This document shows, piece by piece, positions 6,221 to 36,772 of a stretch of 38,340 nt of DNA (the stretch's first letter is position 1; each line of letters opens with the position of its first letter). This DNA is from Armatimonadota bacterium. Its GTDB lineage: Bacteria; Armatimonadota; Hebobacteria; CAIYQO01. The notes below the pieces were generated by a model. That model did no database searches and was not told the origin of the DNA. It saw nothing but the letters and a program-made list of their open reading frames with translations. A program made the translations under genes and the position numbers. The stretch covers positions 1-38,340 of the forward strand of contig JBBQQW010000002.1 in assembly GCA_038215455.1 (NCBI GenBank), given 5' to 3'.

Positions 6221-7432
6221 CTATGATAACTGTGTTATAACTTTTATTCCAGATGGAGTGGGGGAAAAATGGTCCGCAAAACTGTATACTACTGTCATTT
6301 TTTTAGTCTGTGGATTGAAGTACACCAGTTTTTTTTCAGTATCGGTTGCACCTTGTATTACAAACAGGGGCGGATTTGACGACTCTAAATTGATCAATTC
6401 TAACCTAGTCTCTCCGCTAAAAACTGTTGTCCCAGTAGCTACATCGATTATTGATATGGAATGGTCACCATTTGCATATGCCAATGTTTTCCCGTCGGGG
6501 TAGAATTGCATTATATCGTTCATCTGATATCCGAGATATTTTGTATTCGGGGGCGCAAGTTGCTTTTCGGTGCCGGTGGCTAGCTCGTGTAATAGCACCT
6601 CTCCATTTGCTTTAATGTAGGCCAGGTATTTGCCATCTGACGATATGGCATATTGAGAGATATCTGTAAGTCCATGAAGGATAGTGGCATTGCCATTTGC
6701 GACCAGATAGGTGGCCAACCGGCTCTGCTTTGTTAGCTCTTTGGGTTTTAGCGACCAGCCAGATTTATAGCTTTTCACCAGATAGTCACCAGAATCGCCT
6801 ACCCATCGTACCCCGTCTTCTAGTTTTGCCACATTTTCTATCAACGTCATCTTCCCGGTGGCTACCTCATATTCGACTAGTTGCTTATCAGTGGATGTAA
6901 CAATCTTTTTGCCATCGGGAGATAATGAGATGGTGGGGATAGAGTAATTAGGCATGGCTACGGGCATCAAAGTCGTCTGTTTCATATCGGCCATGTTGAT
7001 AGAGACCAGCATTGTAGTCATATGCTGCCCTGCATCTTTTGATGGGGCGATAGCATATATAGTTTTACTATCAGGTGCCCACAAGGCGAGGATATCAGAA
7101 TAATTGAACGATACACCAGCATCATACGATTCCTGCTTAGCCAAATCGTATAATTTCAGATTAGCATTACCTTTTCCATTCTGAACAGAAATTGCGATCC
7201 AATTCCCATCGGGTGACCATTTATATAATATACCGTTAGAGGTGCCATCAGCATCTTCACAGATCAATTTTTTCTCCAGGGTGGTGGTATTCAGCAGGAA
7301 AAGCTTATTCTGCCAAACGTCTCTGCTATTAACATGTCCATAATGCCGTTGCGACACCACCGCCAATTCGGGCGCGGCGTACAGGGCTTGCAGTGATGCC
7401 AGTAGCAGACCAATAGCGATTAGTAGTTTCAT
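6221..7432 (-). CDS. Secreted PD40/TolB-like beta-propeller repeat protein
   Basis: 403 aa with signal peptide MKLLIAIGLLLASLQALYA. Five PD40-type motifs: WSPDGNWIAISV, WAPDSKTIYAIA, LSPDGKKIVTST, ISSDGKYLAYIK, FYPDGKTLAYAN. GGAGG SD upstream. Markedly AT-rich relative to its neighbours. Confidence 0.8.
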   Translation of the reverse strand: MKLLIAIGLLLASLQALYAAPELAVVSQRHYGHVNSRDVWQNKLFLLNTTTLEKKLICEDADGTSNGILYKWSPDGNWIAISVQNGKGNANLKLYDLAKQESYDAGVSFNYSDILALWAPDSKTIYAIAPSKDAGQHMTTMLVSINMADMKQTTLMPVAMPNYSIPTISLSPDGKKIVTSTDKQLVEYEVATGKMTLIENVAKLEDGVRWVGDSGDYLVKSYKSGWSLKPKELTKQSRLATYLVANGNATILHGLTDISQYAISSDGKYLAYIKANGEVLLHELATGTEKQLAPPNTKYLGYQMNDIMQFYPDGKTLAYANGDHSISIIDVATGTTVFSGETRLELINLESSNPPLFVIQGATDTEKKLVYFNPQTKKMTVVYSFADHFSPTPSGIKVITQLS

Positions 7433-9756: not shown

Positions 9757-9820
9757 ATGGTAATGAATTAAAAACGACCTTGCTCCCCCTTCCGCGCCGG
9801 GAAGGGGACGGGGGTTAGGT
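9712..9820. repeat. Family B double-hairpin repeat (copy 1)
   Basis: cctaacccccgcccccttccccgcgagggaagg...aaaaacgacc..ctcccccttccgcgccgggaagggg.cgggggttagg. Outer inverted termini cctaaccccc/gggggttagg enclose two ccccttccc-loop-gggaagggg hairpins. Other copies: 14668-14804, 27464-27575, and a partial copy at 19661-19736. Confidence 0.8.
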
Positions 9821-14667: not shown

Positions 14668-14804
14668 CCTAACCCATATCCCCTTCCCTGCCATTCGGCA
14701 AGCTCATGATCTACGACGAGGGAAGGGGTGCCTATCCAATATCTACAATTGAAAAACGACCATGCTCCCCCTTCCCGCGCCGGGAAGGGGGCTGGGGGGT
14801 TAGG
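14668..14804. repeat. Family B double-hairpin repeat (copy 2; first hairpin loop enlarged)
   Basis: cctaaccc...ccccttccctgcc[30-nt extra loop]gagggaaggggtgcctatccaatatctacaattgaaaaacgaccatgctcccccttcccgcgccgggaagggggctggggggttagg. It starts 10 nt after the oxidoreductase stop. Confidence 0.8.
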
Positions 14805-14843
14805 TAATACCTGACCTCATCAAACTTAGAAAAGGAAAATATC

Positions 14844-15863: not shown

Positions 15864-16130
15864 ATGACAAACGTAGATATGGTAGTAGTTTTTGATGCCA
15901 CGTCTGAAGTGCAGGCGCTGCTCTTCCGCGATATGCTGACGGAAGCCGGTATCGAGGTATACGAACACCTGCTGGAGGATGACACCTTCGAGGGTGTGAT
16001 GCAGAATTCGTTGCACAGTCAACTGATGGTAAGTCCCGAGGACGAAGCCCGCGCCACCGAGTTGATCGTCGCCTTCACCGAAGAGTCCGCCTCCGGCGAG
16101 CTGGATGCAGGTGATGAAATACGCGGGTGA
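15864..16130 (+). CDS. Small acidic protein, DUF2007-like (putative signal-transducing fold)
   Basis: 88 aa with a strong SD. The pattern VVVFDATSEVQALLFRDMLTEAGIEV resembles the DUF2007 family; this is a weak call made from memory. Confidence 0.5.
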   Translation: MTNVDMVVVFDATSEVQALLFRDMLTEAGIEVYEHLLEDDTFEGVMQNSLHSQLMVSPEDEARATELIVAFTEESASGELDAGDEIRG

Positions 16131-16235: not shown

Positions 16236-19200
16236 ATGATGATCCGATGGTGGCGCTCGCTGAGTATATTACTGCTGTTGCTTCCTTTGCTGGTGGCAAC
16301 TGCGGCTGATAAATTGCCGACGAATACTGAGAATGTGCGCGTCCGCACGGTATGGACGGATAAAGGCGTATACTTCACTTTCGTAGTGGAGAAAGTCGGG
16401 GTCAACGGTAAGCACACTGGTTATCCCAGCCTGGCCTGGATTGATGATGCCGTCGCCGTCTACTTTGACCTGACCCCGGCTGGATCACCACGTCTCACCG
16501 ACAGTTGTCGGCGCGTCGTCATCAGTGCCGCTGGCGGGGCCGCCTTTCAGCGGGTGGTAAATGGCGAATGGCTGGATGACCCCACCGGGTTGAAGGATGG
16601 CAAACCCACCTTTGAATATGCGGTGAAGGTAGCTGTGGATCCACGTGATAAAGAGAAGCCCGCCACCGGATATACCGTGGAGTTAGGCTTGCCTTGGAAT
16701 CTGGTGTTGCCTCGTCTGCCGGAAAATCTCCCGCGGAGTGCCGTGCCGCGCACCCGTTTTGCCATGGCAGTTTATGACTTCGGCAATTCGCTCCCCGTGG
16801 GTATCTGGCCTACGGCGCTGTCGCTGAACAACGGCCTGCTTATCCCGGAGAAATGGGGCCAGCTGGGCTTTATTCAGGGGATGGGGGTGGAGAAACCCGA
16901 GGCGCAGCTGCTCAACGTCCCCTATTTACCAGATAACCCTAATGTCGATGGTGACGCGATGGGGCCGGAGTGGATGCTGGCCGGGGGCGTCAATCTCTCG
17001 TTTGCATCGGTATCCAATACCACGCGGAACAAATCGCGCGTGCAGGTATTTGCTGCCTGGTACAGCCTGGAGGATCCAACGCCGAATTTCCCCCATGTTC
17101 CGCTGGAGCCGCGCTGTTCCGGTGCTACCGCGCTGGAGCCGCTTTATCACATGGAGCAACTGACGAGCGCACGCACGGTGGGGGTAGATACCTTTGCCGT
17201 GGCACTGCCGGTGAACAATGCAGAACGTGCCCGCACCCGCACCGCCCTGTGTGCCCTGGTGGAAGCGCTGCGTGGATTTGACGAGGTTTATCGGAAAAAG
17301 GGCCTTAATTACGCAGTGCTCTTAATGCCCGTGCTCGATATGGGTGCGGCAAATAATCTTGATATGAAGACACCCGCCGGGCAGCTGGTGGCACAGAACG
17401 TACTGCAAGATTTCTTCGCGCTGGTACCGCCGCAATATCGGTTGCAATGCAGCGATATCAGCGGTGCGGCGCATCAGCCGGTGCTGCTGTCCGCCCCGGG
17501 CAAAAATGTGCAGTGGGACGAGAGCTTCTTTGCTGCATTACAGAAAAATTCCCGCTCCGCGGCCACGCTGCCTTTTGGCTGGTTGTTGGATAATAGCTAC
17601 CGGAGTATGGCCGTAGATCCGCATACACTCACGCTTTGTTCCTGGGATGCAGCTGCCGCTTTCACGCAGGGAGAGGGGCAGCTGAATGCCGCGCTCCTCG
17701 CCCCCGGGATGAGCGGCCCGTATAAGGATGCACAGCCGCGTCTGGATGGGGAGATATATCGCAACGCCTGGATGCAGCTGACGTCAGCGCAACCGGAGTT
17801 CGTGCTGCTGCGCAGCTGGAATGACTATCGCCAGGGGACAGAGGTGTCCGCCTCCACCCAGTATGGCATCGCCAGCCTGGATATCACGCGCGACTCGCTC
17901 ATCCGGCAGTCGCAGGCCTGTGCGGGCCAGATCAAGCTGCTGCGTACCAGCCTGCCGGCGGTAATCCGCCCGGGTATGACGGTTCCCTTCGATGTGCTGA
18001 TAAAGAATGGCTCAATGCGTGGCCTGCTCCCCTCTGGGGGGTTCGGCGTGCAGTACCAGATATTCCGCGACGGCCTGGAAGTAGCACATGGTACCGCATC
18101 AGATAACGTGGCATTGCTGGAGCAGATCCCCACACAATTGCAGTTATCTATCACGGCGCGGGACAATGAAGCCCGCCGAGATTGGAAGCCGGGAGATTAC
18201 CAGCTGAAGATCGGCTTCACACAGAATCGCATGTCTACCATCATCTTCTCTGCCTTCATCAAGACGGTGGCTGACTTCACTATCCCCTTCACCGTCGCAG
18301 ATAACGCGCCTCTGGTGCAGTTGCTCAATTGGGAATGCCCATCAATCGTCACCGTGGGGGACAAACCGAAGGTCGCGCTGCAGCTGCGTAACCTGGGGGG
18401 GGGCAAATGGGGTAACCAGGATCGACTGGCGTGGAGCTGGCGCGACGACAACGGCACCACCGTGCCCGATAGTGCGCTGGCGGCCACGCAGCTGCGAGAT
18501 ATCGCCCCCGGTGGCATAATGGACGTGAATATCCTGCTGGCACAGACCCCGAAGCTGCCGGGATGGTATACCCTGCACGCTGAAGTGCAGCGCGAGGGCA
18601 ACGCGGCCATATCGCTAGTTGATATCCTGGTGCAGGTCTCCGCAGCTGATTATCGTGCAGAATTCCTCAAGGTGCGGATCCCCGGTGTCATTGTCGAGAC
18701 CGATCGGATATTGGCCGGTGAGGTCACGCTGCGCAATAGCGGCAACACTACCTGGTTGGCGGGTAGCACGCAGATCAGCTGGCAATGGCTGGCTTGGGAT
18801 GGCACGCTGGTGCCGGGTGCCTCCGGCAGCTTCCCCCTCGCCGATGCCACCTCACCAGGTGACGAACTATCGGCCTCAATAAATATCCTCCCACCACCGG
18901 CTGGTTATGGCCAGTTCCGCTGCGTGCTGGGTGTCACTGTAAAAGGCATCCCTGCGCGCCTGTGGACAGCGCCAGACATCTCCGCCTCGCCTATTTATAA
19001 CGTGCTGGTGCGCAAATGGCATTACCTGCCCTTGAATCTGGCGGCGTATTTCGACAACTACACTGCGGCGGCGGATATGGATGCATCGCCATTGCGTGCG
19101 AACTTCGATGGCAAGGGCAATAGTTACCCGCTGGAAGAGTTCCTGCCCGACGCCACCCGTCCGGTACTGGGGTATCAGGCGGGATACCGCACCGGCAAGG

Positions 19201-19634
19201 TAGATATCACGGGGCCGGGATTCCGTTTTGCTGATCCCACCGGAGTACGTGCGCCCGTGGTGAAGGCCAGCGGCCAGAATATCAGCTGGGGCGGGGTGAA
19301 ATCCGCCGCTATCCACCTGGCCGCATCCAGTACCGCCCCGGTAACGGCCATCGCGGCGAAAGAATTCCAGTTTATCATCAACTACACGGACGGCAATGTC
19401 GCGGTGAAGCTGAAGGTGAGTAACTGGATTGACACCCCGGCTAACGGCGAACCAGTAATCTGGAAAACGCGCCATATCCACACCGCCGTGGGCAACGACT
19501 GGTTCAACAACGGGTCGATTTTCGCCTATAAAATACCACTCGACTCCAAGCGCACGGTGAAAGGAATATCCCTGCCCAACGACCCCGACCTGAAACTCTT
19601 CGCATTAACGCTGCAGGAGCCAGATGCGGAGTAG
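16236..19634 (+). CDS. Large secreted multidomain protein (CBM9/DOMON-like N-domain, glycosidase-like core, several Ig-like modules, C-terminal beta-sandwich)
   Basis: 1132 aa. SD GGGGGAG; signal peptide MMIRWWRSLSILLLLLPLLVATAA; VWTDKGVYFTFVV...DDAVAVYFDL (CBM9-like); RSWNDYRQGTEV (resembles WNEWxEG of GH99-like/WbsX domains); repeated ~100-aa modules of the pattern V...N.G...W. The function is not assignable. Confidence 0.8.
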   Translation: MMIRWWRSLSILLLLLPLLVATAADKLPTNTENVRVRTVWTDKGVYFTFVVEKVGVNGKHTGYPSLAWIDDAVAVYFDLTPAGSPRLTDSCRRVVISAAGGAAFQRVVNGEWLDDPTGLKDGKPTFEYAVKVAVDPRDKEKPATGYTVELGLPWNLVLPRLPENLPRSAVPRTRFAMAVYDFGNSLPVGIWPTALSLNNGLLIPEKWGQLGFIQGMGVEKPEAQLLNVPYLPDNPNVDGDAMGPEWMLAGGVNLSFASVSNTTRNKSRVQVFAAWYSLEDPTPNFPHVPLEPRCSGATALEPLYHMEQLTSARTVGVDTFAVALPVNNAERARTRTALCALVEALRGFDEVYRKKGLNYAVLLMPVLDMGAANNLDMKTPAGQLVAQNVLQDFFALVPPQYRLQCSDISGAAHQPVLLSAPGKNVQWDESFFAALQKNSRSAATLPFGWLLDNSYRSMAVDPHTLTLCSWDAAAAFTQGEGQLNAALLAPGMSGPYKDAQPRLDGEIYRNAWMQLTSAQPEFVLLRSWNDYRQGTEVSASTQYGIASLDITRDSLIRQSQACAGQIKLLRTSLPAVIRPGMTVPFDVLIKNGSMRGLLPSGGFGVQYQIFRDGLEVAHGTASDNVALLEQIPTQLQLSITARDNEARRDWKPGDYQLKIGFTQNRMSTIIFSAFIKTVADFTIPFTVADNAPLVQLLNWECPSIVTVGDKPKVALQLRNLGGGKWGNQDRLAWSWRDDNGTTVPDSALAATQLRDIAPGGIMDVNILLAQTPKLPGWYTLHAEVQREGNAAISLVDILVQVSAADYRAEFLKVRIPGVIVETDRILAGEVTLRNSGNTTWLAGSTQISWQWLAWDGTLVPGASGSFPLADATSPGDELSASINILPPPAGYGQFRCVLGVTVKGIPARLWTAPDISASPIYNVLVRKWHYLPLNLAAYFDNYTAAADMDASPLRANFDGKGNSYPLEEFLPDATRPVLGYQAGYRTGKVDITGPGFRFADPTGVRAPVVKASGQNISWGGVKSAAIHLAASSTAPVTAIAAKEFQFIINYTDGNVAVKLKVSNWIDTPANGEPVIWKTRHIHTAVGNDWFNNGSIFAYKIPLDSKRTVKGISLPNDPDLKLFALTLQEPDAE

Positions 19635-19635
19635 T
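19554..19635 (+). repeat. 82-bp direct repeat, copy 1 (authentic 3' end of the 1132-aa gene)
   Basis: acggtgaaaggaatatccctgcccaacgaccccgacctgaaactcttcgcattaacgctgcaggagccAgatgcggagtagt. It is 81/82 identical to 21972-22053. Confidence 0.9.
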
Positions 19636-19660
19636 GGATATTAGTATTGAAATGTTTCAC

Positions 19661-19736
19661 CCCGGAGGGGTGCTTATCCAATATCTACAATTGAATCGGC
19701 ACCCCTTCCCTCGCAGGGAAGGGGCTGGGGGTTAGG
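19661..19736. repeat. Family B repeat, partial copy (spacer + second hairpin + right terminus)
   Basis: cccggaggggtgcttatccaatatctacaattgaa...caccccttccctcgcagggaaggggctgggggttagg. It matches the right two-thirds of 14668-14804. Confidence 0.7.
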
Positions 19737-19777
19737 TGAAACCAATCGGCAAAGCGTCCGAAAAATCTATTATCGAA

Positions 19778-19918
19778 GGAATCAGTGATGAAGTGCGCTT
19801 CATTATTTGTGGATGAAAATCAGATGTGGTAGAACCCACTGCCCTGCCGTTCACGGCTGGGCGATAGGCTGGCGGGTACGAACACGCTAAACCAGCCTTG
19901 GAACTTGGAACTATTTTC
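19778..19918 (+). repeat. Family C composite intergenic repeat (plus orientation)
   Basis: See 5784-5930. It contains the terminator-like hairpin (19787-19810), a GC-rich block ending gccgttcacggctgggcgataggctggcggg, and ccttggaacttggaactatttt immediately before the SD of the V4R gene. Confidence 0.75.
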
Positions 19919-19970
19919 GCAAAGGAGATGAATTATATCGAACGAGCGTAAGTATGAATTCAGTTGGGAT

Positions 19971-20456
19971 TTGCTGGGCGACATTGCCCTGGGGCGGCCA
20001 AATCTGGGGGCGAACACGCGCATTGAGGTCTATCGCCTGATGCAGTTTTCCTTCCGTGATATTATCGAGCAGGAATACGGCACTGCTGCAGTGGACAAAG
20101 TATTCTACGCAGCAGGCAAGCTGGCCGGGCGCGAGTTCTACGCGCACCTGATGCCGGGGGTGACCGATTTCTCCAGCTTTGTAGCGAAGTTGCAGGAGTT
20201 GTTGCTGGAGCTGGGTATCGGGGTGTTGCGCATTGAAAAAGCGGATCTGGAAACAGGTGCGCTGGTGCTAACTGTGTCAGAAGACCTGGACTGCTCCGGG
20301 TTGCCGGATACTGGCGAAGTCATCTGCATCTACGATGAGGGGTTCATCGCCGGATTATTGCAGTGCTTCACCGGAAAAGAGTACGATGTAAAGGAGGTCG
20401 ACTGCTGGTGCGTGGGAGACCGCACGTGCCGCTTTACAGCAGATATAATCGCGTGA
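19971..20456 (+). CDS. V4R (4-vinyl reductase) domain protein; true start uncertain
   Basis: 161 aa from the TTG. V4R hallmarks: GRPNLG...VYRLMQF, GREFY, GIGVLRIEKADLETGALVLTVSEDLDCSG, ICIYDEGFIAGLL, CWCVGDRTCRF. The frame is open from 19932 (ATT ATA TCG AAC GAG CGT AAG TAT GAA TTC AGT TGG GAT). That stretch encodes ERKYEFSWD, which reads like part of the domain, but it has no canonical start codon. Confidence 0.75.
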   Translation: MLGDIALGRPNLGANTRIEVYRLMQFSFRDIIEQEYGTAAVDKVFYAAGKLAGREFYAHLMPGVTDFSSFVAKLQELLLELGIGVLRIEKADLETGALVLTVSEDLDCSGLPDTGEVICIYDEGFIAGLLQCFTGKEYDVKEVDCWCVGDRTCRFTADIIA

Positions 20457-20471
20457 GGATCGGGGCATTAT

Positions 20472-21978
20472 TTGGATAGGGGTAATCCGGCTGAAATTGA
20501 AGAGATCGTCGCTTTACTGACGATGGCGTTGGATGGCCGTGCGCAGCCTGCGCCGTTGCCCGCCGTGTGGGCGCAGCTACCTGAAATTGCTAACCTGTAT
20601 GACGGAATCCTTGTATTACGGCAGGTGGTGGTGGCGCTGGCATCTGGCGACCTGGCACCGGAGGTCACCCGGCGCGGCTTTGTGGCCGGTGCGCTGAAGG
20701 GGATGCAGTTCGAATCTGCGCCACCTCACCTGGCAGACGCAGATGATCGCAGCGGGGGACTATGCGCAGCGGGTAGCGTTCATGGGGGAGTTCTCCACCG
20801 CCTTTAACTCCATGGTAGTACATTTGGAAGAGGCGCGCGCGTTACTGGCAAAACAAAACGATGTATTGAGCCAGGAAGTCACCACCCGCAAGATATTGGA
20901 GGTGGCGGAGCGAGAGCAGCGCAATTTCGCCGAATCACTGAATCAGGTCAGCGCCATCCTCGGCTCCTCGCTTGACCTTAATCAGGTGCTGGATAGCATC
21001 CTCGATACTATTGGGCATGTTATCCCCTATGACGGCGCTTTCCTGGTGCTGCTGGAGGATGGGCAGGTGCGCATCGTGCGACAGCACCTTAACCTGGAGG
21101 GGAGCGAGCAGGATGTGACCAAACAGCCGATCATTCCGCTGGTGGATGCGGTGCCGTTGCGAATGATGTATGAAACGCACCAATCGGTCATCATCGAGGA
21201 GATGCCGGAGCACTTCTGCTGGCAACCCGAGGACGCGGAGTGCCCGATGCTTTCATTGCTGGGTGCCCCGATTATTATCCAGGACGAAGTGCAAGGGTTC
21301 CTGCTACTGGGGAGCAAACAGGCAAGTTTTTACCCGCAGCTTTCGGCAGATCGGCTAGCCGCCTTCGCAGCGCAGTCAGCATTGGCGATACAGAACGCCC
21401 GCCTCTTCCAGGATATCTACCGCCTGGCCACCACTGACTCGCTCACCGGCATCTATAACCGCCATCACTTCTATAAGATTGGCAGCGGCGAATTTGCCCA
21501 GGCGCAACGACAGCAGTATCCACTCGCCTGTATCATGCTGGATATTGATCATTTCAAGGATGTCAATGACACCTGTGGCCACGCCATGGGGGACGAAGTA
21601 CTACGCCAGACGGCCCGGACATGTGCGGCGCAATTGCGCGACAGCGATATCATCGGGCGCTACGGCGGCGAGGAATTTGTCATATTACTCCCCTACACCG
21701 ACACCGTCGGGGCACAGTTGATAGCCGAACGCCTGCGGCAGGCAGTGCTGCACACCACAGTTACCTGGGAGGATCAGCTACGCTCGATCACCATCAGCCT
21801 GGGCGTGGCGGTGATGCAGGATTCATCCACCATATACTCACTGATCAACCAGGCCGACCAGGCGATGTACCACGCCAAAGAGCAGGGGCGGAACCAGGTG
21901 CAGGTGTATAAATTGCATCCGAGTGAAACCCCTCACAACGCCCCCCAACAGCATTTAGCCGAGAAAATAGTACGGTGA
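20472..21978 (+). pseudogene. Sensor diguanylate cyclase (N-terminal region + HAMP-like linker + GAF + GGDEF) interrupted by a 1-nt frameshift near 20709
   Basis: Frame 1 (20472-) ends ...RRGFVAGALKGMQ. The +1 frame continues SNLRHLTWQTQMIAAGDYAQRVAFMGEFSTAFNSMV. Together these form one contiguous conserved linker motif as I recall it from related sensor proteins. Deleting one T in cagTTcgaat restores a single ~500-aa ORF. Confidence 0.65.
20743..21978 (+). CDS. GAF-GGDEF diguanylate cyclase (longest intact frame of the interrupted gene)
   Basis: 411 aa. GAF-like region (ILGSSLDLNQVLDSILDTIGHVIPYDGAFLVLLEDG...). GGDEF domain TDSLTGIYNRHHF, MLDIDHFKDVNDTCGHAMGDEVL, active site GGEEF with an upstream RDSD (RxxD I-site), QADQAMYHAKEQGRNQV. 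The stop codon lies inside the 82-bp repeat copy 2. Confidence 0.85.
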   Translation: MIAAGDYAQRVAFMGEFSTAFNSMVVHLEEARALLAKQNDVLSQEVTTRKILEVAEREQRNFAESLNQVSAILGSSLDLNQVLDSILDTIGHVIPYDGAFLVLLEDGQVRIVRQHLNLEGSEQDVTKQPIIPLVDAVPLRMMYETHQSVIIEEMPEHFCWQPEDAECPMLSLLGAPIIIQDEVQGFLLLGSKQASFYPQLSADRLAAFAAQSALAIQNARLFQDIYRLATTDSLTGIYNRHHFYKIGSGEFAQAQRQQYPLACIMLDIDHFKDVNDTCGHAMGDEVLRQTARTCAAQLRDSDIIGRYGGEEFVILLPYTDTVGAQLIAERLRQAVLHTTVTWEDQLRSITISLGVAVMQDSSTIYSLINQADQAMYHAKEQGRNQVQVYKLHPSETPHNAPQQHLAEKIVR

Positions 21979-22053
21979 AAGGAATATCCCTGCCCAACGA
22001 CCCCGACCTGAAACTCTTCGCATTAACGCTGCAGGAGCCGGATGCGGAGTAGT
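21972..22053 (+). repeat. 82-bp direct repeat, copy 2 (orphan duplicate of the 1132-aa gene's 3' end)
   Basis: 81/82 identical to 19554-19635 (G instead of A at 22040). It is not attached to the rest of that gene and provides the TGA stop of the GGDEF ORF. Confidence 0.9.
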
Positions 22054-22060
22054 CCGCCGT

Positions 22061-22454
22061 GCCATGGGCTTGTCGAATGGGCCCATGAGAACGGGGCTAA
22101 TGATAAGCGTTCGTAAATCCTATTACCCCGGAGGGGTTTAGGCTTATAGCCGGGGGTGAAGCGGAGCGGAACCCCGGGTTTTAGGTGCAAACACAACGAA
22201 GCCCCGGATGGTGCGACGGCTAAGCCGTCGCACCATCCCGGGCTTCGAAATTTTAAGAGGGCACATCACCCCGGGGTTCCGCTCTGCTCCACCCCGGGCT
22301 ATATTCCGTCACCACTTCGTGGTGGTTTATCTTGCGACCACATTCACCGCAACCCCGTTCTCATGGGCGAGACGCCCATGGCACAGACCAATAATGCAGA
22401 ACTATTTGGATGAAGCTCCCCTTTCGTGCTTTTCGTGTATTTCGTGGTTTTAAG
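22061..22454. repeat. Family D nested palindromic element (~390 bp)
   Basis: Three concentric inverted-repeat layers. Layer 1: gccatgggc..gcccatgagaacgg (22061-22094) vs ccgttctcatgggcgagacgcccatggc (22355-22383). Layer 2: tagccgggggtgaagcggagcggaaccccggg vs ccccggggttccgctctgctccaccccgggcta. Layer 3: the central near-perfect 23-bp-arm hairpin gaagccccggatggtgcgacggc-taa-gccgtcgcaccatcccgggcttc (22198-22246). The right flank carries (tttcgtg)x3. Related copy at 38212-38340. Confidence 0.7.
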
Positions 22455-22471
22455 TGCCTATCACGCACAAT

Positions 22472-22501
22472 TTGACTTTTACCACCCCGAAAGGGTAATA
22501 T
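22472..22501 (+). promoter_or_regulatory. Candidate sigma70 promoter (TTGACT-N18-TAATAT) for the 173-aa gene
   Basis: The hexamers lie at 22472-22477 and 22496-22501. A second TTGACTTTTAC copy occurs at 22515. Confidence 0.35.
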
Positions 22502-22540
22502 TATGGTTGCGATTTTGACTTTTACAGTGTGGAGATATCA

Positions 22541-23050
22541 ATGGCGGAGAAGGCAACCTCAAAAACAGAGAAGACCCCGAAGGTAACGGCGTTGGCAGTT
22601 GGCGATCATGTGCGCTTGAAGGCGCGCGTGGCCAACCTGCACAAATCATTCCAGGTGACTGGCAGTGAAGTCGCCTCGAATTATGAGCCGGTGGATGGGC
22701 TGATTTTTTCGATCCGCAATATTGGTTCCGGCGACCTGGTGGCGCAGGCGGAAGGCGACCTCAGTAATTTCGTCATTGAGTTGCTGATCAATCGTACCTT
22801 CAATACCAAGGTAGCTTCGGCGAAAAACGCCCCGCGCACTTCCGAGCGTGAGACGGCGACCCCGGCTTACCGCCGGGTGCGCAAAGCATTGCGTGATGCC
22901 GCTGCGGCCGGACAATTTTTCACCTCCATCAAACCGGAGAGCTACCTCAGTAGCCCGCTGGCGAAACAACTGGATGGCTGGAAGATTATTAAAGTGTGGT
23001 CGAAGGATATCGCGATCCTCACCCGCTCCGAACATATGCCAGCAGGTTAA
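22541..23050 (+). CDS. Hypothetical protein (169 aa from the ATG at 22541)
   Basis: ORF with a GGAG SD 6 nt upstream of the ATG at 22541; the ORF-track GTG start at 22529 is less likely. I recognise no family motif. Confidence 0.6.
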   Translation: MAEKATSKTEKTPKVTALAVGDHVRLKARVANLHKSFQVTGSEVASNYEPVDGLIFSIRNIGSGDLVAQAEGDLSNFVIELLINRTFNTKVASAKNAPRTSERETATPAYRRVRKALRDAAAAGQFFTSIKPESYLSSPLAKQLDGWKIIKVWSKDIAILTRSEHMPAG

Positions 23051-23118
23051 ATACAACTTTCCATCATCCCGGGTGTCAAAAGGTTTGATGGGTTTATTCC
23101 CCATCCGGGAGAAAATCT

Positions 23119-25038
23119 TTGCGCGGACCAGTTATATATCTGCTGCTAGCGATCTTCTTCGGTATGTTCACATTGACATGCCGAGCGGAGGTAGTCGTCA
23201 CCCCGGTAAAAGACGCTACCGGCGAATTTCTCGTCGTCACCCCTAGCTATAAAGCTCATATCATTGACGGCAATATCCACTCGTTGCGCGTCTTCGGAGT
23301 GGAATTCCTCGACGACCGCGTCCCTGGTTCCGCCGGCGCATCATTCTTTGTGGACAAACCGTTGCCGTTGCCTACCTGTACCGCCAATGGCAATGTCCTC
23401 ACCGCCACCGATGGCACCTATAGCGCACGCTATGAATTCAGCAGTGGCTTCTTCACCATCGCCCTGAATCATACCGCGCCCCAGCCGGCGACATTCATCA
23501 CTGTCTGTTCGCCGCAGATCGCCTATGTGCGCAATTCCACTCCAGCGACGATGGCGGTGGCCCCGGCGGACTTCAACTGGGGCAACGTGCGTATGATCGT
23601 GCCTACCGGCGAATACCTTGACCTGCAGAACGGCAGTGATATCTGGGGGCGCAAAATTGGCCGTCAGGTGTGGGAACGCAGCAATATCGCCCCCTCCAAG
23701 ACAGTGCGCAAGGAAGAAACGCTGCTCTTTATCCCGGGCAAGATGGCCCCGCCGCGCCCGACGGTAGATCAGCTCACCCAGCTAGCAGTATCATTGGACG
23801 ATCCCAATCAACTGGTACCGTCATTTGCCCCGGTGGAGTTGAAGGTACGCTTCGAGAATAACAGCAATCAGCAGATCTCCTCATCGATGTTGCTGCGCGT
23901 CGAATCATCGACCGGAGTGCGGCTACTCGAAAATAAACGCCCATTTACCTGCCCGCCCCACGAAGTGGCTACATTGAGTTGGACGGTAAACCCGAAGGAT
24001 GCGGACTTCTACCAGGCTAGCTGCGCGGTAACGCTGGATGGTGCCAACCCCAAACAGGCGCTGACGACCTTTGGCTACGACGTGGCGAACATCAAACTCA
24101 CTACGACACCACCGGCAGACTTCACCGAGTATTGGAAAAAAGTCACCGATGAGGCGCAGGGTGCCAATATCAAGCTCACACGCGAGCTTGATACGGACCG
24201 CTCCACCGCCACCGTGAAGGTGGAACGCCTGACCATCAATGTCGGCGAATATAACGGCAGTGCCTGGCTGGCGACACCGAAGTTTCCCGGCCGCTATCCG
24301 GCGCTGGTCATCTTGCCGGGTGATCACGTTCGGCGCATCTACCCGAATGAGAAGCTGGCGGAGTTGGGCTTTGTTGTCTTATCCATCGAGCCTACCGGTC
24401 AGAATATCTCACGTGATCTGCAGGTAATCGCCACTAAGGCCTTCAACGATCCCGGCAATCCGGCCAAATTCGGCTATCGTGCGGTGATGCTGCACTATCT
24501 GCAGGCGCTCAAATTATTAAAAGACGGCACCATCGCCGAGGTTGATCCCGGCCGTATCGCCATCACCGGCGTCGGGCTGGGGGGCAGTATGGCATTGATG
24601 CTGGGTGCGCTCGATCCGGCGATTCAAGCGGTGGCCCCCGATATCCCCTCCTTTTGCTACATCGAGCAGGGGAAGGATCAGGCGGGCTGGCCCTACCCCG
24701 ATTTCGTCCCTTACCTGCGCGACCACCCGAAGGAACGCGATGCCGTGCTGAAGACGCTGGCCTATTTCGACGCGGCGAACTTCACCGCAGGTATCACCTG
24801 CCCCACACTCATCAGTGCGGGGATCAATGATAACTACTGCCGTCCGACGAATATCTATGCGCTGGCAAACCGCCTGCCCGGCGCACATTCTGTCGCGCTC
24901 TATATCGCCGGTCACGAAGGCGGTGGGGGCAAACACTGGCAAGTGAAGATGAACTGGCTGCATCTGCTGCTGGGCGAGCCAGGCCCACTGCCGGTGGCAG
25001 CACTAACAGCAGAAGCGGAGAAGGCCCCACCTAAATGA
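23119..25038 (+). CDS. Secreted protein with C-terminal acetyl-xylan-esterase (AXE1/CE7)-like alpha/beta-hydrolase domain
   Basis: 639 aa, TTG start with SD GGGAGA. Signal peptide MRGPVIYLLLAIFFGMFTLTCRAE. The C-terminal half has FTEYWKKVTDEA, YPALVILPGD, ITGVGLGGSMALMLGA, GINDNYCRPTNIYALANRL and IAGHEGGG, arranged as in the AXE1 family. Confidence 0.75.
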   Translation: MRGPVIYLLLAIFFGMFTLTCRAEVVVTPVKDATGEFLVVTPSYKAHIIDGNIHSLRVFGVEFLDDRVPGSAGASFFVDKPLPLPTCTANGNVLTATDGTYSARYEFSSGFFTIALNHTAPQPATFITVCSPQIAYVRNSTPATMAVAPADFNWGNVRMIVPTGEYLDLQNGSDIWGRKIGRQVWERSNIAPSKTVRKEETLLFIPGKMAPPRPTVDQLTQLAVSLDDPNQLVPSFAPVELKVRFENNSNQQISSSMLLRVESSTGVRLLENKRPFTCPPHEVATLSWTVNPKDADFYQASCAVTLDGANPKQALTTFGYDVANIKLTTTPPADFTEYWKKVTDEAQGANIKLTRELDTDRSTATVKVERLTINVGEYNGSAWLATPKFPGRYPALVILPGDHVRRIYPNEKLAELGFVVLSIEPTGQNISRDLQVIATKAFNDPGNPAKFGYRAVMLHYLQALKLLKDGTIAEVDPGRIAITGVGLGGSMALMLGALDPAIQAVAPDIPSFCYIEQGKDQAGWPYPDFVPYLRDHPKERDAVLKTLAYFDAANFTAGITCPTLISAGINDNYCRPTNIYALANRLPGAHSVALYIAGHEGGGGKHWQVKMNWLHLLLGEPGPLPVAALTAEAEKAPPK

Positions 25039-25895
25039 CATTACCTCACCTTGACCTGGCGGACCCCGCCATTCTCAGCGATCTGCTCTTTCGGCACCAT
25101 TTCGTCACGCGCAAATCGCTGGGGCAGCATTTCCTCATCAGCCGCCCGGCAGTAGAGGCCATCGTCACTGCTTGCTGCCTGGACGAGGGCCTGCCCATAT
25201 TGGAGATCGGGCCGGGTATCGGCACATTATCACGTGCGCTGGGCGAAGCGGGGGCGTCTGTCACTGCAGTAGAGCTGGACGAGCGCGCCATGTGGGTGCT
25301 GGAGGAGACGGTGGGCAAAATCCCGTCTATCAAGCATATTCAGGGCGATATCCTCACCATTGATCTGGATAAGATGCTCGCTGGCTCACCCCGCTGGACA
25401 GCCGTGGGCAACCTGCCCTACTACATCACCACGCCGGTGATCAGCCGCCTGCTGGAGATGGGGCCGCGCTTCGCGCGCATGATCTTCATGGTGCAGCGCG
25501 AGGTGGCCGACCGGCTCATGGCCACCCCCGGCTCGCCGTCGTGCGGGTCATTGTCCATCTATGCGCAGGTCTATACCGAGGTCACGCGCGTCATCGACGT
25601 CCCGCGCGCCGACTTCCTGCCGCCGCCCAAGGTGGATTCCGCGGTGGTATGCCTGACAATCCGCGCGCAGCCCGCCGTGCCGGTGGCATTGCAGCCGCAA
25701 TTCTTCGCCCTGGTACGCGCCGCATTCAACCTGCGCCGCAAAACCCTGCCGAACGCCCTGGCCGGCGGCGGTATCCTCGAAGGCGACCGTTCCGCGATAG
25801 CAGAACTGCTGCAAAACGCCGAAATCTCCCCCACCCGCCGTGGCGAGACGCTGAGCATCGCAGAATATCTGCGGCTGGCGGAGCTGATGAAATAA
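25035..25895 (+). CDS. rsmA: 16S rRNA (adenine1518/1519-N6)-dimethyltransferase RsmA (KsgA)
   Basis: 286 aa. LGQHFL; ILEIGPGIGTLSRAL; VGNLPYYITTP; FLPPPKVDS. The start ATG overlaps the upstream stop (ATGA), so the two genes are probably translationally coupled. Confidence 0.93.
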   Translation: MTLPHLDLADPAILSDLLFRHHFVTRKSLGQHFLISRPAVEAIVTACCLDEGLPILEIGPGIGTLSRALGEAGASVTAVELDERAMWVLEETVGKIPSIKHIQGDILTIDLDKMLAGSPRWTAVGNLPYYITTPVISRLLEMGPRFARMIFMVQREVADRLMATPGSPSCGSLSIYAQVYTEVTRVIDVPRADFLPPPKVDSAVVCLTIRAQPAVPVALQPQFFALVRAAFNLRRKTLPNALAGGGILEGDRSAIAELLQNAEISPTRRGETLSIAEYLRLAELMK

Positions 25896-25928
25896 CCCCG
25901 CCGCCGGCAACGCCCCCGGGGGACGGAC

Positions 25929-27413
25929 TCATTTTCCCGCCTTCTCACTAGCAGCGGTTCGTTTGTTCACTTCGCCGCGTTTCTCTTCCAGTTCGTCGAT
26001 GCTGGCAATCTTCAGCCGGGCGGCACCCTGGTAGTCGCGGGTGGGGATAAGGTTGTCGCTGGCGAGGGTTACCTTGGCGGCGGTGATGGCTTTGCTGTAT
26101 TGCGGCAGCCATCGCTCCCCGGCCACCAGCATCTCGTCGGCCAGCTGCCATATCTCCGGCGGGTTGCAGACGGCCCCGGTAAGGGGGTCCAGCATCATCG
26201 CCTGGCGCAGCAGCATGTCGTCGCCATGCACCGCCGCCTCCACCGCCAACCGTTGCACGCTGATACTCACGTTGCACACCGCAGCACAGCCTAGCGGCAG
26301 GTCGCCTACGCGGGGGATATTGATACCGTTGGCGTCCACGTAGCCGGGCACCTCCACGATGGCATCCTCCGGCAGGTTAGTGATACAGCCGTGGTTGACC
26401 ACGTTGAAGTGCCCACGGTAGACGCGGCCCGTCTCCAGCCCTTCGATGATATAGGAGGCGTGCTCTTCGCCGCGGTCTTTCGGCTCGAAGGTTTTGGGCG
26501 GTTCCTGCATCCAGTTGGGGAAGTCGTGCTCGAACCAGTTGCGGTCCTCGGTGCAGATGCGCAGGTAGCCGCCGGTCTCGCCGTTGATCCAGCTGGAGAG
26601 GTCAATCCAGTTGAGGATATCCTCCGCGCGCTTGCGGTACCAGGGCACGTACTCGCTCAGGTGGCCGTTGGACTCGGTGCTGAAGTAACCGAAGCGCTTC
26701 AGCATGTCGATGCGCACCTTCTCTTCCCGGCTCAGCTTTTCATTCGCCTCAAAAGCCGCCAGCAGCTTGCCGGTCATATCCTCGCCGTTATGTTTGACGC
26801 TGATGTACCAGGTCTGGTGGTTGATGCCCGCGCAGATGATGTCCACTTCCTTCTTCTCCAGCCCCAGCACATCGGCAATCATGCGATGCCCGCCCTGCAC
26901 GCCGTGGCACAGCCCGATAGCACGCACGCCGCCGTATTTATTGATCGCCCAGGTGTTCATGACGTTGGGGTTAGAGTAATTGAGGAAGAGGCAGTCCGGC
27001 GCGGCCAGCTCGCGGATATCCTGGCAGAAGTCGAGCAGCACCGGGATAGTGCGTTGCCCGTACATAATACCGCCCGGCCCCAGCGTATCGCCCACGCACT
27101 GGTCCACGCCATACTTCAGCGGGATATTCACGTCGGTAGCAAAGGCCTCCAGCCCGCCCACGCGCACAAAGGAGAGCACGTAGTTGGCATCCCTTATCGC
27201 CTCGCGCTTCTCGGTGGTGGCCACTATGGTGGCGGGGAAGCCAGCGGAGTCGATATCGCGCTTCACCAGCCGATACACCAGCTCCAGATTGTGCGCGTTG
27301 ATATCGCAGAAGGCGAACTGCGTGTCACGCAACTCCGGCACGCACAAGATATCGCGCACAATCCCCCGCGTAAAGCCGACGCTCCCCGCGCCGATAATTG
27401 CTACTTTGATCAT
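25929..27413 (-). CDS. Glycoside hydrolase family 4 (NAD/Mn-dependent alpha-glucosidase/alpha-galactosidase type)
   Basis: Rossmann motif MIKVAIIGAGSVGFT; NYSNPNVMNTWA; GLCHGV; GINHQTW. I prefer the ATG at 27413 (AGGA SD upstream) over the TTG at 27428. Confidence 0.9.
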   Translation of the reverse strand: MIKVAIIGAGSVGFTRGIVRDILCVPELRDTQFAFCDINAHNLELVYRLVKRDIDSAGFPATIVATTEKREAIRDANYVLSFVRVGGLEAFATDVNIPLKYGVDQCVGDTLGPGGIMYGQRTIPVLLDFCQDIRELAAPDCLFLNYSNPNVMNTWAINKYGGVRAIGLCHGVQGGHRMIADVLGLEKKEVDIICAGINHQTWYISVKHNGEDMTGKLLAAFEANEKLSREEKVRIDMLKRFGYFSTESNGHLSEYVPWYRKRAEDILNWIDLSSWINGETGGYLRICTEDRNWFEHDFPNWMQEPPKTFEPKDRGEEHASYIIEGLETGRVYRGHFNVVNHGCITNLPEDAIVEVPGYVDANGINIPRVGDLPLGCAAVCNVSISVQRLAVEAAVHGDDMLLRQAMMLDPLTGAVCNPPEIWQLADEMLVAGERWLPQYSKAITAAKVTLASDNLIPTRDYQGAARLKIASIDELEEKRGEVNKRTAASEKAGK

Positions 27414-27457
27414 AAAGATTTCCTTCAAAAAAAGATTTGGTGGGCGCTTTGCCCGTT

Positions 27458-27581
27458 GGTCTACCTAACCCCCAGCCCCTTCCCTGCGAGGGAAGGGGTG
27501 CCTATTCAATGATTCTCTATGGAAAAACGATCATTCTCCCCCTTCCCGCGCCGGGAAGGGGGCCGGGGGGTTAGGTAGACC
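27458..27581. repeat. Family B double-hairpin repeat (copy 4, the most symmetrical)
   Basis: ggtctacctaacccccagccccttccctgcgagggaaggggtgcctattcaat...aaaaacgatcattctcccccttcccgcgccgggaagggggccggggggttaggtagacc. It has a perfect 15-nt terminal inverted repeat. Confidence 0.8.
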
Positions 27582-27624
27582 AAGGCTAACGCCATAGATA
27601 CTATATCAGTCATCCATCCATTCC

Positions 27625-28125
27625 TTACAACTTGCTCATAATGATGAATTTCTCAATCTCACGCAGATGGTCGCGCTGGACGTTGTCCACCGAGGTCACC
27701 ATCCCCTTTTTCACTTCGGGGTCTTTGATGAATTTGGCGGCCATTTTCACCAGCAGTCCGTCAAAGAAGTCGAGTTTCTCGATGATATATCTGCCGGGCA
27801 GGGCGAAGAGGTGTATTTTATCCAGTGTGTCGGCGAAGAGGCTGCCCGTCACCGCCTTCTCGCAGGTCTGCATATCACCGGCGGAACTAGTTACCATCAA
27901 CGCGATCGTTTTATCCTGGATCGAGCGCCATTTGCTGTTGATCCAGTTCTTCAGGGTCAATGATCCTGCCACGATGCTGCAGCCTAGGATTATCGTGTCA
28001 TAGCCGAAAAGGTTCTCCGGCTCCTTGCCTGCCTCGAAAAGATCAAAACCGGTGCTCTCCTGCAGCCATTTAGCATACTGCCGGGTGGCACCATATTTGG
28101 ATTTGTAGATAATTATTCCCTTCAT
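27625..28125 (-). CDS. Flavodoxin-like fold protein (flavodoxin/HemG-type domain)
   Basis: 166 aa. N-terminus MKGIIIYKSKYGATRQYAKWLQE and DTIILGCSIVAG are typical of short flavodoxin-domain proteins. GC content is lower than in its neighbours. Confidence 0.75.
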   Translation of the reverse strand: MKGIIIYKSKYGATRQYAKWLQESTGFDLFEAGKEPENLFGYDTIILGCSIVAGSLTLKNWINSKWRSIQDKTIALMVTSSAGDMQTCEKAVTGSLFADTLDKIHLFALPGRYIIEKLDFFDGLLVKMAAKFIKDPEVKKGMVTSVDNVQRDHLREIEKFIIMSKL

Positions 28126-29545: not shown

Positions 29546-29746
29546 CCAGGAGTATCGTTTTTAGCGACAAACTGTCCTTACGGGCCTGGCCGTGAACGAC
29601 CAGGCTGGAAGGCCTACGGCCAATCGCACATTCGGGCGGGACGGGTAAGGGTAAGCGTTCCCGTCCGAAGGACGATCGGCGAAGCCCTCCAGCCCAGTCG
29701 TTCACGGCTGGGCGAACAGGACGGGCGCTAAAAACGATACTCCTGG
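29546..29746. mobile_element. Family A MITE-like element, full copy with 21-bp terminal inverted repeats
   Basis: TIRs: ccaggagtatcgtttttagcg (29546-29566) and cgctaaaaacgatactcctgg (29726-29746). The whole 201 bp folds as one long imperfect hairpin. It is flanked by ggatagacc (left) and ggaatagacc (right), a possible ~9-bp target-site duplication. Truncated copy at 353-532. Confidence 0.8.
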
Positions 29747-29763
29747 GGAATAGACCATTATAT

Positions 29764-32700
29764 ATGACAGATTCAAGCCATAATCATAATGGAAATATGC
29801 ATGCAAGCAATGACCTTCTAACTGGCTTACTCACCTTGAAGGGATGGGTAAACGAGCTAATAGAGGGCCGGTTTTCTTCGTCTGGCTATATCCTCTCACT
29901 TCGTCTCACAGATTTGGCACATATCAACCAGATGTATGGCCAGGAAGAATGCGATATTCTCATCACCCGGGTCGCTCAAATGTTACAGGGCTGGGTTCAC
30001 GAGCAGACACTACTGGTGCGCGAATCAAGGTCAGCTCTGATATATCTCTGGATGCCGGGCAGCAATCATGATGAGACACAACAGATGGCGTTACGGCTGC
30101 AGCAGTCGCTTTTTGCTTCCGGCATCATGATCGCCAGTGGAGTCGAGATACACCCACGCGTGGTGGTGACAATAATACCCGTATCCGAGCATGATCAGGT
30201 ATATGATGTCGTTTCCAAGTTAGAGCGTCTGGAAGTGCGGGAACCCGCGTTGGATGCTCCTGTGAACAGTGCAGCAAACGGATCATTGGCGTTATTGAAT
30301 GCCGCATTGGAAGAACATCACACCTTCGGGCTGGAACCACTGGTAGAAAAGATCCACTCCTTTATCAATTTGAAGGCGATGAAACGGCCGCAGACCATCC
30401 TGTTGCTGGCTCCGTTGCAGTCGGTCAAGTCGCGTACATTGGGTATCGTCGGGGACTTCCTCGGTAGCAGCAATATCCCCCTGGCAAACGTCTCCTGCCA
30501 CCCCAGTGATCGTGAGGTGCGTTGCGGTTTGTTGGCGGCCATCTTGCTGACGTTGATCCCCTCGTATCCCCCGGAATTATTACGCGCCCGTGTCTTCCCG
30601 CTCTGCACCCTCAATCCCTGGTTGGCGAGCCTTTTCCCCACCTTGCGCCAGGATGAAGCTGCACCGTTGCCACCGGACGATCCAGAGCTGGTGCGGACTA
30701 CTATGCAGGCAGTGCTGCAGGAGATGGTACAGGCTTATTCGGCCATGATAATCATCAATAGTCTGCACCTCGCCGATATCGATTCTATCACGGTGTTGGG
30801 AGCGTTGCAACAACGCGACGACCATGGCTTGCTGATAATCGGTGGGGTGGATACAGAAGGTGATGGCGTCCCGGTGGTAGTGAACCCACTAGTGACCAGC
30901 GCCACCAAAGTTATCATCCCAGAGCCATTCAACGAGAGTACTATTGGTGAATATATAAACAATGTGCTCCCGGGAGTGAAGACACCCGCACTGGTGAAAC
31001 TGCTGCGCGAGCGCTGCGGCGGTTGGCTGCTGAATATGGAGAGTATGCTCCGCTCCTGGGCGGAGAGCGGCGTGCTGAATCATGACCTCGGCAGGTGGCA
31101 ACTGGATGCCGCTACTATCCCGGCGGAGATATTCTCTACCTTGTCTCCGCGCGAGCGCCGGTTTCTGGCACAAGCAGCATTAGTTGGCCCGGTACAGATC
31201 GGTTTCCTCACTGCACTCTGGCGGCTGAGTAGCAATAGCGAGACGCTGGTGATAGTAGACCATGCCCGCAAGATGGGTTTCCTGCTCCCGGTTGCCCCCG
31301 ACGATCCACTGCACGTGCAGTTCCGCGACGAAGAGTATGCCGCGCAACTGGTCGAGCTACTCACGCAGGAAGATGTGTTACGTACTCATGCAGAAATAGC
31401 GAGTCTGTTGGAAGATTCAACCGTAGTATTGCAAGAGATGCATACCGAAGCAGAGCTGGCATTCCACCTTAATGAATCCGGGCAGAATGAGCGCGCAAAG
31501 CAACATCAGGCACCACCGGCCAAATCTCTCGGCGCGTTCATCAATACCTTAAAAGCACAACAACCCGAGGGAATCGGGATGGCAGAAGAGTCACCCTTAC
31601 CGCGTAGTCAGCCGTTGGAGAAGGCCGACCTGCCTGCCATGATCGATGCTGTCCTGAATATCCGTCTGGTAGGCGTCGCCTATCGGATTTATCCGCCTAA
31701 TTCCGAGATAGTCCGTACACAAATGGAGGACGCCATCATCGCGATAGATCAGGTACTCGCTACGCGTCCGTCTCTTACGATCTCCACCGATGGGGCGCAA
31801 ATAGCGTTGGAAGGTCGTATCCAGGACCGGCGTGACCTCGCGGTTCCTTTAAAAGACTACCTAAACTGGATGAATGAAGCGCAACTGCAGACATTCGTCA
31901 TCATGCGTGGTGTGACTGCGGATGAACTGAAAACTATGTTTTTGACTATCGCCGAATTCGATAACGTGAATGCCACGGACACCTTGCAGCATACACTGCA
32001 GGCGTTGAAGATGCAGCACATCCGCTTTGTACCACGCCAGCAACAGATGAATCAGCATTATCAGGGGGGGGCAAATACGATCAGTGTGCCTGCGGAACTG
32101 GCCGGTACATTGCTGATGAACATGGCTAACCAGACCATGGCCCCGGCAGGCAGGGCTAATCCCTATGAAATGGCCACGGATGCAATGAAACAACTGGGTA
32201 ACATGCAATCTCCGGAATCACCATCGACGACGAATCAATGGCAGGATAGTAGATTTGATACGGAGGAATCAACTCCGGTAATGGAAAGTAATGCCGCAGC
32301 ACCGGCAAGCGCTGCCACCGGTGCTACCTCGAAAAAGATGCTGAACATGGCGGTAGCCATGACTAATCCTGCCTCCATGACTGCCAATGACTGGTCACAA
32401 TTACCGGCGATGCTGGATGAATCAGATACGCAAATGCGGCGCTCGGTGATGGAAAATCTCAATCGTTGGCTCGCGAAATCGCCCGACATCGTTAATGAGC
32501 CGGTGAATGAATGCCTGAATAATCTGCTGCTGGAGCGGCTGGAGCAGGAGCGTGACATCACTGTGCTGCGCGAGACAGCGCGTGCCGCCATGGCCCGCCT
32601 GCAGGCACTGGTGAAGCGTCATGACTGGAATCAGGTTCTCACCATAGTGGAATCAGTGAGCACGCGCATCAAAGATGAGAGCGACGTCAGCATCCAGGAG

Positions 32701-36737: not shown

Positions 36738-36743
36738 GCAACC

Positions 36744-36772
36744 AGTATAACAATATAGTCCATTCATAGCAA
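36744..36772 (-). promoter_or_regulatory. Candidate promoter giving a leaderless transcript of the methyltransferase gene
   Basis: The minus strand reads TTGCTA-N17-TATACT-N6-ATG. There is no Shine-Dalgarno sequence between the -10 element and the ATG. Confidence 0.45.

Follow-up and report, generated by a model that had tools for sequence, protein, structure and literature searches.

How did the 3′ end of a single gene come to be present twice on contig JBBQQW010000002.1, with a two-gene signalling operon lying between the copies? Here we report an analysis of the whole of this metagenomic contig (38,340 nt, hereafter the window), an origin-proximal region with gidA, gidB, parA and parB, in which an 82-bp direct repeat, E, brackets a 2.4-kb unit carrying a V4R gene and a diguanylate cyclase gene. 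The left copy, E1, is the end of a gene for a 1132-amino acid (aa) protein, here called gene A, and the right copy, E2, is an orphan. The gene end is duplicated, the insert is an operon that is conserved in relatives, both of its genes are damaged, and Pfam scans that covered every sizeable open reading frame (ORF) of the window detected neither an integrase nor a transposase or reverse transcriptase. On balance, and with only modest confidence, we read the locus as a real and fairly recent recombination scar that was formed without a dedicated mobile element. The features on which this reading draws are as follows, with repetitive extragenic palindromic (REP) elements named by family and the loci fetched for comparison numbered with the prefix L.

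16236-19634, plus strand: gene A, 1132 aa, an intact ORF with a signal-peptide-like N-terminus and no family match
19554-19635, plus strand: E1, repeat copy 1, made up of codons 1107-1132 and the TAG stop of ORF 16236-19634, plus 1 nt
19636-19774, plus strand: unique 12-nt spacer, then a degenerate REP-B with its left hairpin deleted and a 3′ extension, recognised by alignment to 9711-9820, 14690-14806, 27462-27577 and the L001 copies
19778-19919, plus strand: REP-C, an inverted copy of 5785-5930, from inverted repeats I1, I5 and I7 (86-90% complementary)
19921-20456, plus strand: V4R gene with Shine-Dalgarno sequence AAAGGAG (Pfam V4R, E = 5.5e-15; 91% aa identity to L051)
20472-21978, plus strand: diguanylate cyclase gene of linker-GAF-GGDEF layout, ~500 aa if repaired (Pfam GAF-GGDEF, E = 6e-47)
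21916-21971, plus strand: unique 56-nt tail between the conserved cyclase end and E2
21972-22053, plus strand: E2, orphan copy of the gene A end, its left edge the putative illegitimate joint
22059-22466, no strand assigned: REP cluster that separates E2 from the next syntenic block and consists of REP-D and an inverted-repeat element with a hairpin
22529-25895, plus strand: block C, with a 173-aa gene, an acetyl-xylan esterase gene and KsgA, all intact and in another context in relatives

The duplicated end of gene A

The two copies of E (19554-19635 and 21972-22053) are each 82 nt long and have the same base at 81 of 82 positions, in agreement with the near-perfect direct repeat described in the initial annotation of this stretch. 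Their sole mismatch (A at 19622, G at 22040) is preceded by 68 identical bases, sits 13 nt from the right edge and falls in the third base of a proline codon (CCA/CCG), so that it is synonymous. Both edges of the repeat are sharp, with flanks that match only at random level (12/40 positions upstream and 9/40 downstream), and the right edge lies 1 nt beyond the gene A stop codon. As had been proposed from the sequence, copy 1 supplies the last 26 codons and the stop of the 1132-aa gene (ORF 16236-19634) and copy 2 is the orphan, the native and conserved gene end being copy 1. The C-terminus of the gene A protein is conserved in its L001 homologue, which is 62% identical overall (VKGITLPNDPDLKIFALTIQ in the window against VKGISLPNDPDLKLFALTLQ in L001), and the residues encoded by E1 are predicted to form two β-strands of a sandwich-like terminal domain in a model of the C-terminal 332 aa that is weak as a whole (mean pLDDT 60) and locally better at these residues (~80). 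Given this conservation and the predicted strands, we take E1 as the native end of gene A, to which it is probably indispensable, and E2 as the extra copy.

The repeat is not a dispersed element. When a 42-mer of the repeat was searched with up to 3 mismatches, E1 and E2 were the sole matches in the window (0 expected from 100 shuffles), and among the 138 fetched loci E was otherwise present only as the orthologous gene end in L001 and L002. A degenerate 44-nt pattern of E had no match in JGI metagenomes or IMG/VR, and an exact 20-mer searched against GTDB species genomes hit 45 loci, all of them chance or unrelated matches and mostly in one Streptomyces gene. The initial annotation had suggested looking for further copies of the 82-mer, and none exists in the window beyond E1 and E2. 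Nor does E have a distinctive secondary structure, since it folds no better than shuffled sequence (z = -0.24).

Gene A itself belongs to a very rare protein family, and in every locus where it is found it is preceded by a small DUF2007 gene (15864-16130 in the window). The protein had no match in Pfam, NCBIfam or PDB, only 3 homologues were found among 5.8 billion proteins, and none of these homologues is accompanied by a second copy of gene A. Identical-protein look-ups of the 1132-aa and 411-aa products of the window returned nothing on record.

A conserved, damaged operon behind gene A

The interval between the copies (19636-21971) is fully filled by the 12-nt spacer, one REP-B and one REP-C element, the Shine-Dalgarno sequence and V4R gene, the cyclase gene and the 56-nt tail. 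The family B fragment and family C repeat that had been noticed here are REP elements of the miniature inverted-repeat transposable element (MITE) kind. REP-B, which spans ~19648-19774 in the interval, belongs to a palindromic family of ~115 nt with termini ACCTAACCCCC...GGGGGTTAGGT and two GGGAAGGGG hairpins. Further copies of these REP families are found in other parts of the window, with up to 97-98% identity, as well as in related contigs, and the families therefore belong to the host lineage.

Both genes of the operon, identified as in the initial annotation by their Pfam matches, are damaged. In the V4R gene, ATA (19935-19937) stands where relatives have the ATG start; it is closely preceded by an in-frame TGA (19929-19931), and the one ATG in the vicinity is in another frame. 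The cyclase gene, already suspected of a frameshift, carries one extra base near 20709-20711 (+1) relative to four homologues. Its ORF runs on to a TGA at 21976-21978 within E2, so that copy 2 does supply the stop codon. Taken literally, the further claim that the junction falls within the cyclase reading frame holds, but this results from reading past the usual stop and not from truncation of the ancestral coding sequence, as homologous cyclases finish 19-21 codons before the end of the ORF in the window and the joint lies ~56 nt downstream of the ancestral coding end. The 56-nt tail and the first bases after E1 and E2 recur nowhere else apart from the REP elements, and the tail may be left over from the spacer that relatives have between the operon and the next gene. 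At the other end of the operon, DNA homology between the window and L051-L053 starts only at 19924, at the Shine-Dalgarno sequence, and the native promoter region is therefore absent from the window.

The cassette thus carries two lesions in 2 kb, or three if the stop read-through is counted, compared with none in ~14.6 kb of 13 syntenic genes (those comparable with L001 or L057, all of expected length), and the probability that two random lesions would both fall in the cassette is ~0.015. For this reason we judge sequencing errors unlikely and consider that the lesions are probably real mutations in a decaying cassette rather than assembly errors. The decay probably stems from the loss of the promoter, or from the operon having become dispensable. 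In composition the cassette is host-like, with a GC content at third codon positions (GC3) of 0.68-0.71 and codon usage similar to those of gene A and the esterase gene.

The V4R protein (19935-20456) is a stand-alone, cysteine-rich protein that also matches the V4R part of the MsvR model, a partial match (E = 5.5e-16) scoring 59 bits against a cutoff of 220 bits. MsvR has been described as a redox-sensing regulator. The cysteines and the likeness to MsvR, together with a ferritin neighbour in relatives, hint that a redox or iron signal might feed the cyclase.

A V4R gene paired with this type of cyclase is conserved in relatives, at other loci. In L051-L053 and L056 the operon is flanked by a ferritin gene and, downstream, by a 263-aa PHP-like gene, with 69-70% aa identity to the window for the cyclase and 91% for V4R, and in L054 and L060 it lies between PSD1/DUF1501 genes and Band_7 genes. 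A GGDEF gene lies immediately downstream of V4R in 14 of 80 V4R relatives fetched from JGI metagenomes. Cassettes of this kind elsewhere, for which the initial annotation had proposed a search, are thus found in relatives, at other loci; a gene-end repeat surrounds the operon at none of the 14 related V4R-GGDEF loci. From the side of gene A, L001 has the same upstream gene order as the window (ParA-ParB-hyp-GFO/IDH-AP_endonuc_2-DUF2007-A, where hyp is a hypothetical protein gene) and a single gene A end with no cassette behind it. Single gene ends with no cassette are likewise found in L001/L002 and L004/L005, which are distant and have other downstream genes. The closest relatives of the cassette and of the flanks sit on short contigs.

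Downstream of E2, homology to L057 resumes at 22467, where the same genes occur in a different order. In L057 (2977-8583) the order is GH4(-), flavodoxin(-), 170-aa gene, AXE1, KsgA, and in the window (22467-28125) it is 173-aa gene, AXE1, KsgA, GH4(-), flavodoxin(-), with orientations as in L057. The best hits of the neighbouring esterase point to an Armatimonadota-like lineage. REP clusters lie at the block edges, REP-B beginning 12 nt after E1 and REP-D 5 nt after E2. This permutation of blocks with REP clusters at their edges indicates that gene order is fluid in the lineage, and neither the adjacency of gene A and the cassette nor that of the cassette and block C was seen in any available relative.

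Origin of the duplication

The initial annotation had offered two readings, an attachment (att)-type duplication left by an integrating element or a footprint of recombination, and both fit the anatomy of the locus, in which an intact gene end is accompanied by a displaced orphan copy. We favour the second. The first lacks support, as there is no recombinase, the cargo is an operon that related genomes conserve and that has host-like codon usage, and relatives of that operon have no such bracketing repeats; the initial observation that the cassette holds no integrase extends to the whole window. In the recombination we envisage, a promoterless copy of the V4R-GGDEF operon of the lineage, with host REP elements upstream, would have been placed directly behind gene A. 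Since E occurs twice, two copies of the gene end must have been involved, and a non-duplicative inversion or translocation cannot explain the structure. The second copy may derive from a sister chromosome or from DNA of a conspecific donor, or it may have been copied anew after a template switch. Of the two boundaries, one would lie 1 nt past the gene A stop codon and the other would be an illegitimate joint, at which the 3′ spacer of the operon was fused to a point 82 nt before the stop. The outcome would be a gene end present twice, with copy 1 keeping gene A whole and copy 2 a dead remnant.

Two routes to this outcome seem the likeliest. A homologous crossover in or before gene A could have been combined with an illegitimate crossover between a chromosome with the order gene A-E-REP-operon-next gene and one with the order gene A-E-block C, the partners being sister chromosomes or a chromosome and conspecific donor DNA. 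Alternatively, a replicative template switch could have left gene A-E-block C just past the stop, copied the operon at its own locus and returned 82 nt upstream. We infer an event of one of these kinds, either homologous plus microhomology-mediated crossover, as in homology-facilitated illegitimate recombination (HFIR), or a two-step replicative template switch. Both routes predict the tail-E2 joint, and neither needs an element-encoded enzyme. In L051-L053 the cyclase gene is followed by a 45-nt spacer and then by the PHP-like gene, which starts ATGCGGTGG; this start and the start of E (ACGGTGAAA) have CGGTG in common at the expected meeting point, which is suggestive of microhomology at the illegitimate joint. 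HFIR joints typically carry microhomologies of 3-10 bp (PMC6382021). The CGGTG match, which was noticed after the fact, has a chance probability of ~1.6% (P ~0.016), and L056 has CAATG at this position. Between the 56-nt tail and the L051/L056 spacer there is a loose similarity, with a C-rich motif at the same distance (P ~0.08).

Several points weigh against recombination without a dedicated element. The microhomology and the tail similarity are weak, were found post hoc and depend on a relative that is ~25% diverged in DNA. The right edge of the repeat falls at the stop codon plus 1 nt, as integrative elements that target 3′ ends produce, a coincidence that is only mildly expected under random recombination. 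No empty site or donor arrangement was seen in the searched collections, where the nearest relatives differ at a proportion of synonymous sites (pS) of at least 0.44 and are rearranged here. The cassette is also more diverged from its nearest homologues than the flanks are from theirs: pS is 0.64-0.70, at saturation, between the cassette (19935-21978) and L051 or L056, compared with 0.44-0.46 for gene A (16608-18471) against L003 and for the esterase gene (23119-25038) against L058. This could reflect a different origin of the cassette, and the excess keeps a scenario of import alive, in contrast to the host-like codon usage and the near-identity of E1 and E2. A cassette homologue (L053) and a gene A relative (L003) come from the same metagenome-assembled genome (MAG), GCA_037140675.1; it is possible that this bin mixes populations, that the operons are paralogous, or that the history of the cassette differs from that of its flanks.

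Import would suit a decayed site-specific islet, or cis-mobilizable element (CIME), which would have integrated into the 3′ end of gene A by means of an attP carrying a replacement end and then have lost its integrase and all else but the cargo, E1 and E2 being attL and attR, perhaps still usable in trans. Integrative mobilizable elements are known to integrate into the 3′ ends of protein-coding genes and to leave the gene end in one direct repeat, and CIMEs are elements that have kept attL and attR and lost their integration genes (PMC5704250). The layout here is what such an element would leave: E1 ends an intact target gene, E2 stands alone beyond the cassette, and the repeat finishes at the stop codon. 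However, the interval consists wholly of REP elements and the operon, with no integrase or remnant of one; the operon that makes up the cargo is conserved on chromosomes of the lineage, has host-like codon usage and lacks its promoter, being preserved only from the Shine-Dalgarno sequence onward; and the inner REP elements are near-identical (97-98%) to other copies in the window. A length of 82 bp also exceeds the 8-60 bp usually quoted for tyrosine-recombinase repeats (PMC5704250), the 14 related V4R-GGDEF loci have no flanking gene-end repeat, and the pattern of the 82-mer was not found in JGI metagenomes or IMG/VR. We therefore consider a CIME unlikely. A variant in which the V4R-GGDEF unit is a minimal non-autonomous cassette, mobilised in trans through recognition of the 3′ end of gene A by an unlinked recombinase, seems improbable; were it true, the 82-mer would be a functional att site, and this uncultured lineage, probably Armatimonadota, would have a cassette system without an enzyme of its own.

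Under mis-phasing during assembly, the chromosome would in truth read gene A-E-block C and the 2.4-kb unit would exist apart from it as a circle or tandem array, or strains would have been mixed, with both joints present in reads and merged into a single path by the assembler. The window comprises an entire metagenomic contig that ends in a REP copy, and the 68 identical bases before the mismatch could be collapsed in a small-k graph. Against this, the mismatch is 13 nt from the right edge and so ties each allele closely to the flank that follows it, a length of 82 bp is within reach of single reads of 100-150 nt, and the 13 intact syntenic genes indicate an assembly that is not error-prone; moreover, the tail-E2 joint must exist in the reads, so the duplication event would be real in any case. 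Mis-phasing is thus unlikely. E2 could also be what is left of a second, recently duplicated whole copy of gene A downstream of the operon, the rest having been removed by a deletion that ran from the 3′ spacer of the operon to 82 nt before the stop of that copy. This would need only one illegitimate joint, at tail-E2, and block permutations of the kind produced by duplication and loss are found nearby, yet it would require a prior duplication of >3.4 kb that has left no other trace, there is no more similarity to gene A upstream of E2, and no homologue has two copies; we assign it little probability. The layout bears a superficial likeness to a diversity-generating retroelement (DGR), with E1 as variable repeat and E2 as template repeat, in that the 3′ end of a secreted-protein gene has a near-identical non-coding copy 2.4 kb downstream. 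A DGR is nevertheless excluded, given that the window has no reverse transcriptase or Avd, that the mismatch (A in the gene copy, G in the orphan) runs in the wrong direction for adenine mutagenesis and that the C-terminus is conserved among homologues rather than hypervariable.

Three further candidates were rejected. Simple tandem duplication is ruled out by the 9/40 matches after E2 compared with E1 and by the different REP families that follow the two copies. For a DDE transposon or insertion sequence there is no transposase, the insert ends (GGATATT... and ...AAATAGT) are not inverted repeats, and the duplication is 82 bp long. An integron cassette is excluded in that E has no special fold (the z of -0.24 given above) and there is no integrase.

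Repeats in the surrounding window and comparison with known systems

Copies of the REP-B type are found in the window at 9711-9820, 14690-14806, 19648-19774 and 27462-27577, and the same family is found in relatives (L001 198-311, 6388-6503 and 18470-18630; L053 4021-4164), being common to the window and to contigs at saturated synonymous divergence. The copies lie within a few bases of stop codons, and the REP-C and REP-D families behave alike. The gidA/mnmG ORF (7723-9756, 677 aa) ends within the REP-B copy at 9711-9820, and its Pfam GIDA match is split after residue 227; nt 8434-8556 in this gene resemble REP-C (78% to 19846-19910, with matches in L057), so that a REP/MITE seems to have inserted in frame into this housekeeping gene. 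In L051, two 58-nt REP copies that are 97% identical (2316-2373 and 2893-2950) surround a small HTH gene, and REP pairs around single genes therefore occur in the lineage. The window ends inside a REP-D copy (38284-38338) like the one after E2, and a 179-nt element of the REP-C type is present at 353-531 and 29547-29725, 29 kb apart, at 96% identity; repeats such as these probably limit assembly. No tRNA genes and no Rfam family match were found in the window. By far the most deviant codon usage in the window is that of a WD40/PD40 β-propeller gene on the minus strand (6221-7432; GC 0.435 and GC3 0.44, against ~0.6 and 0.7-0.8 in its neighbours), which was probably imported recently. A 1252-aa protein (29764-33522) with HEAT repeats, and with a weak GGDEF match over only part of the domain (E = 1.2e-6), is encoded beside a Type ISP restriction-modification enzyme (Type_ISP_C, N6_Mtase; 33528-36860, minus strand).

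The locus looks like an ordinary scar of recombination, left in an uncultured genome that is rich in repeats and heavily rearranged, and not like a new mobile element. Its value is mainly local, as a case of a conserved signalling operon relocated and then decaying in a REP-rich, often rearranged genome, and it opens no new question. Two 82-bp repeats in this arrangement should permit RecA-dependent loss or amplification of the 2.4-kb unit, which would make the unit metastable. With close strains, the locus could become a clean natural example for separating HFIR from template-switch insertion.

Among known systems, the locus resembles the join points of HFIR and of microhomology-mediated duplications and insertions in bacteria in having extra DNA beside a homologous anchor (the gene end), one illegitimate joint and no element enzyme, and possibly in a short GC-rich microhomology (CGGTG), which here is deduced from a diverged relative. 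In contrast to described HFIR cases, the outcome is a duplication of recipient sequence, and the donor and recipient arrangements are not among the observed ones. Like the attL and attR of elements that integrate into 3′ ends, E1 and E2 are direct repeats around a cassette, one completing the gene and the other an orphan, but unlike such elements and CIMEs the locus has no integrase or remnant of one, a compositionally native cargo that is the operon of the lineage itself, an unusually long repeat of 82 bp and no second site or element. With DGRs it has in common the 3′ end of a secreted-protein gene that is repeated nearby in non-coding DNA, whereas reverse transcriptase and adenine-specific differences are absent and the C-terminus is conserved. 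Finally, target DNA is directly duplicated around an insert, as in transposon target-site duplication; however, such duplications range from a few bp to ~14 bp, and the 82 bp found here, too long for a transposase as the initial annotation had pointed out, is accompanied by neither terminal inverted repeats nor a transposase.

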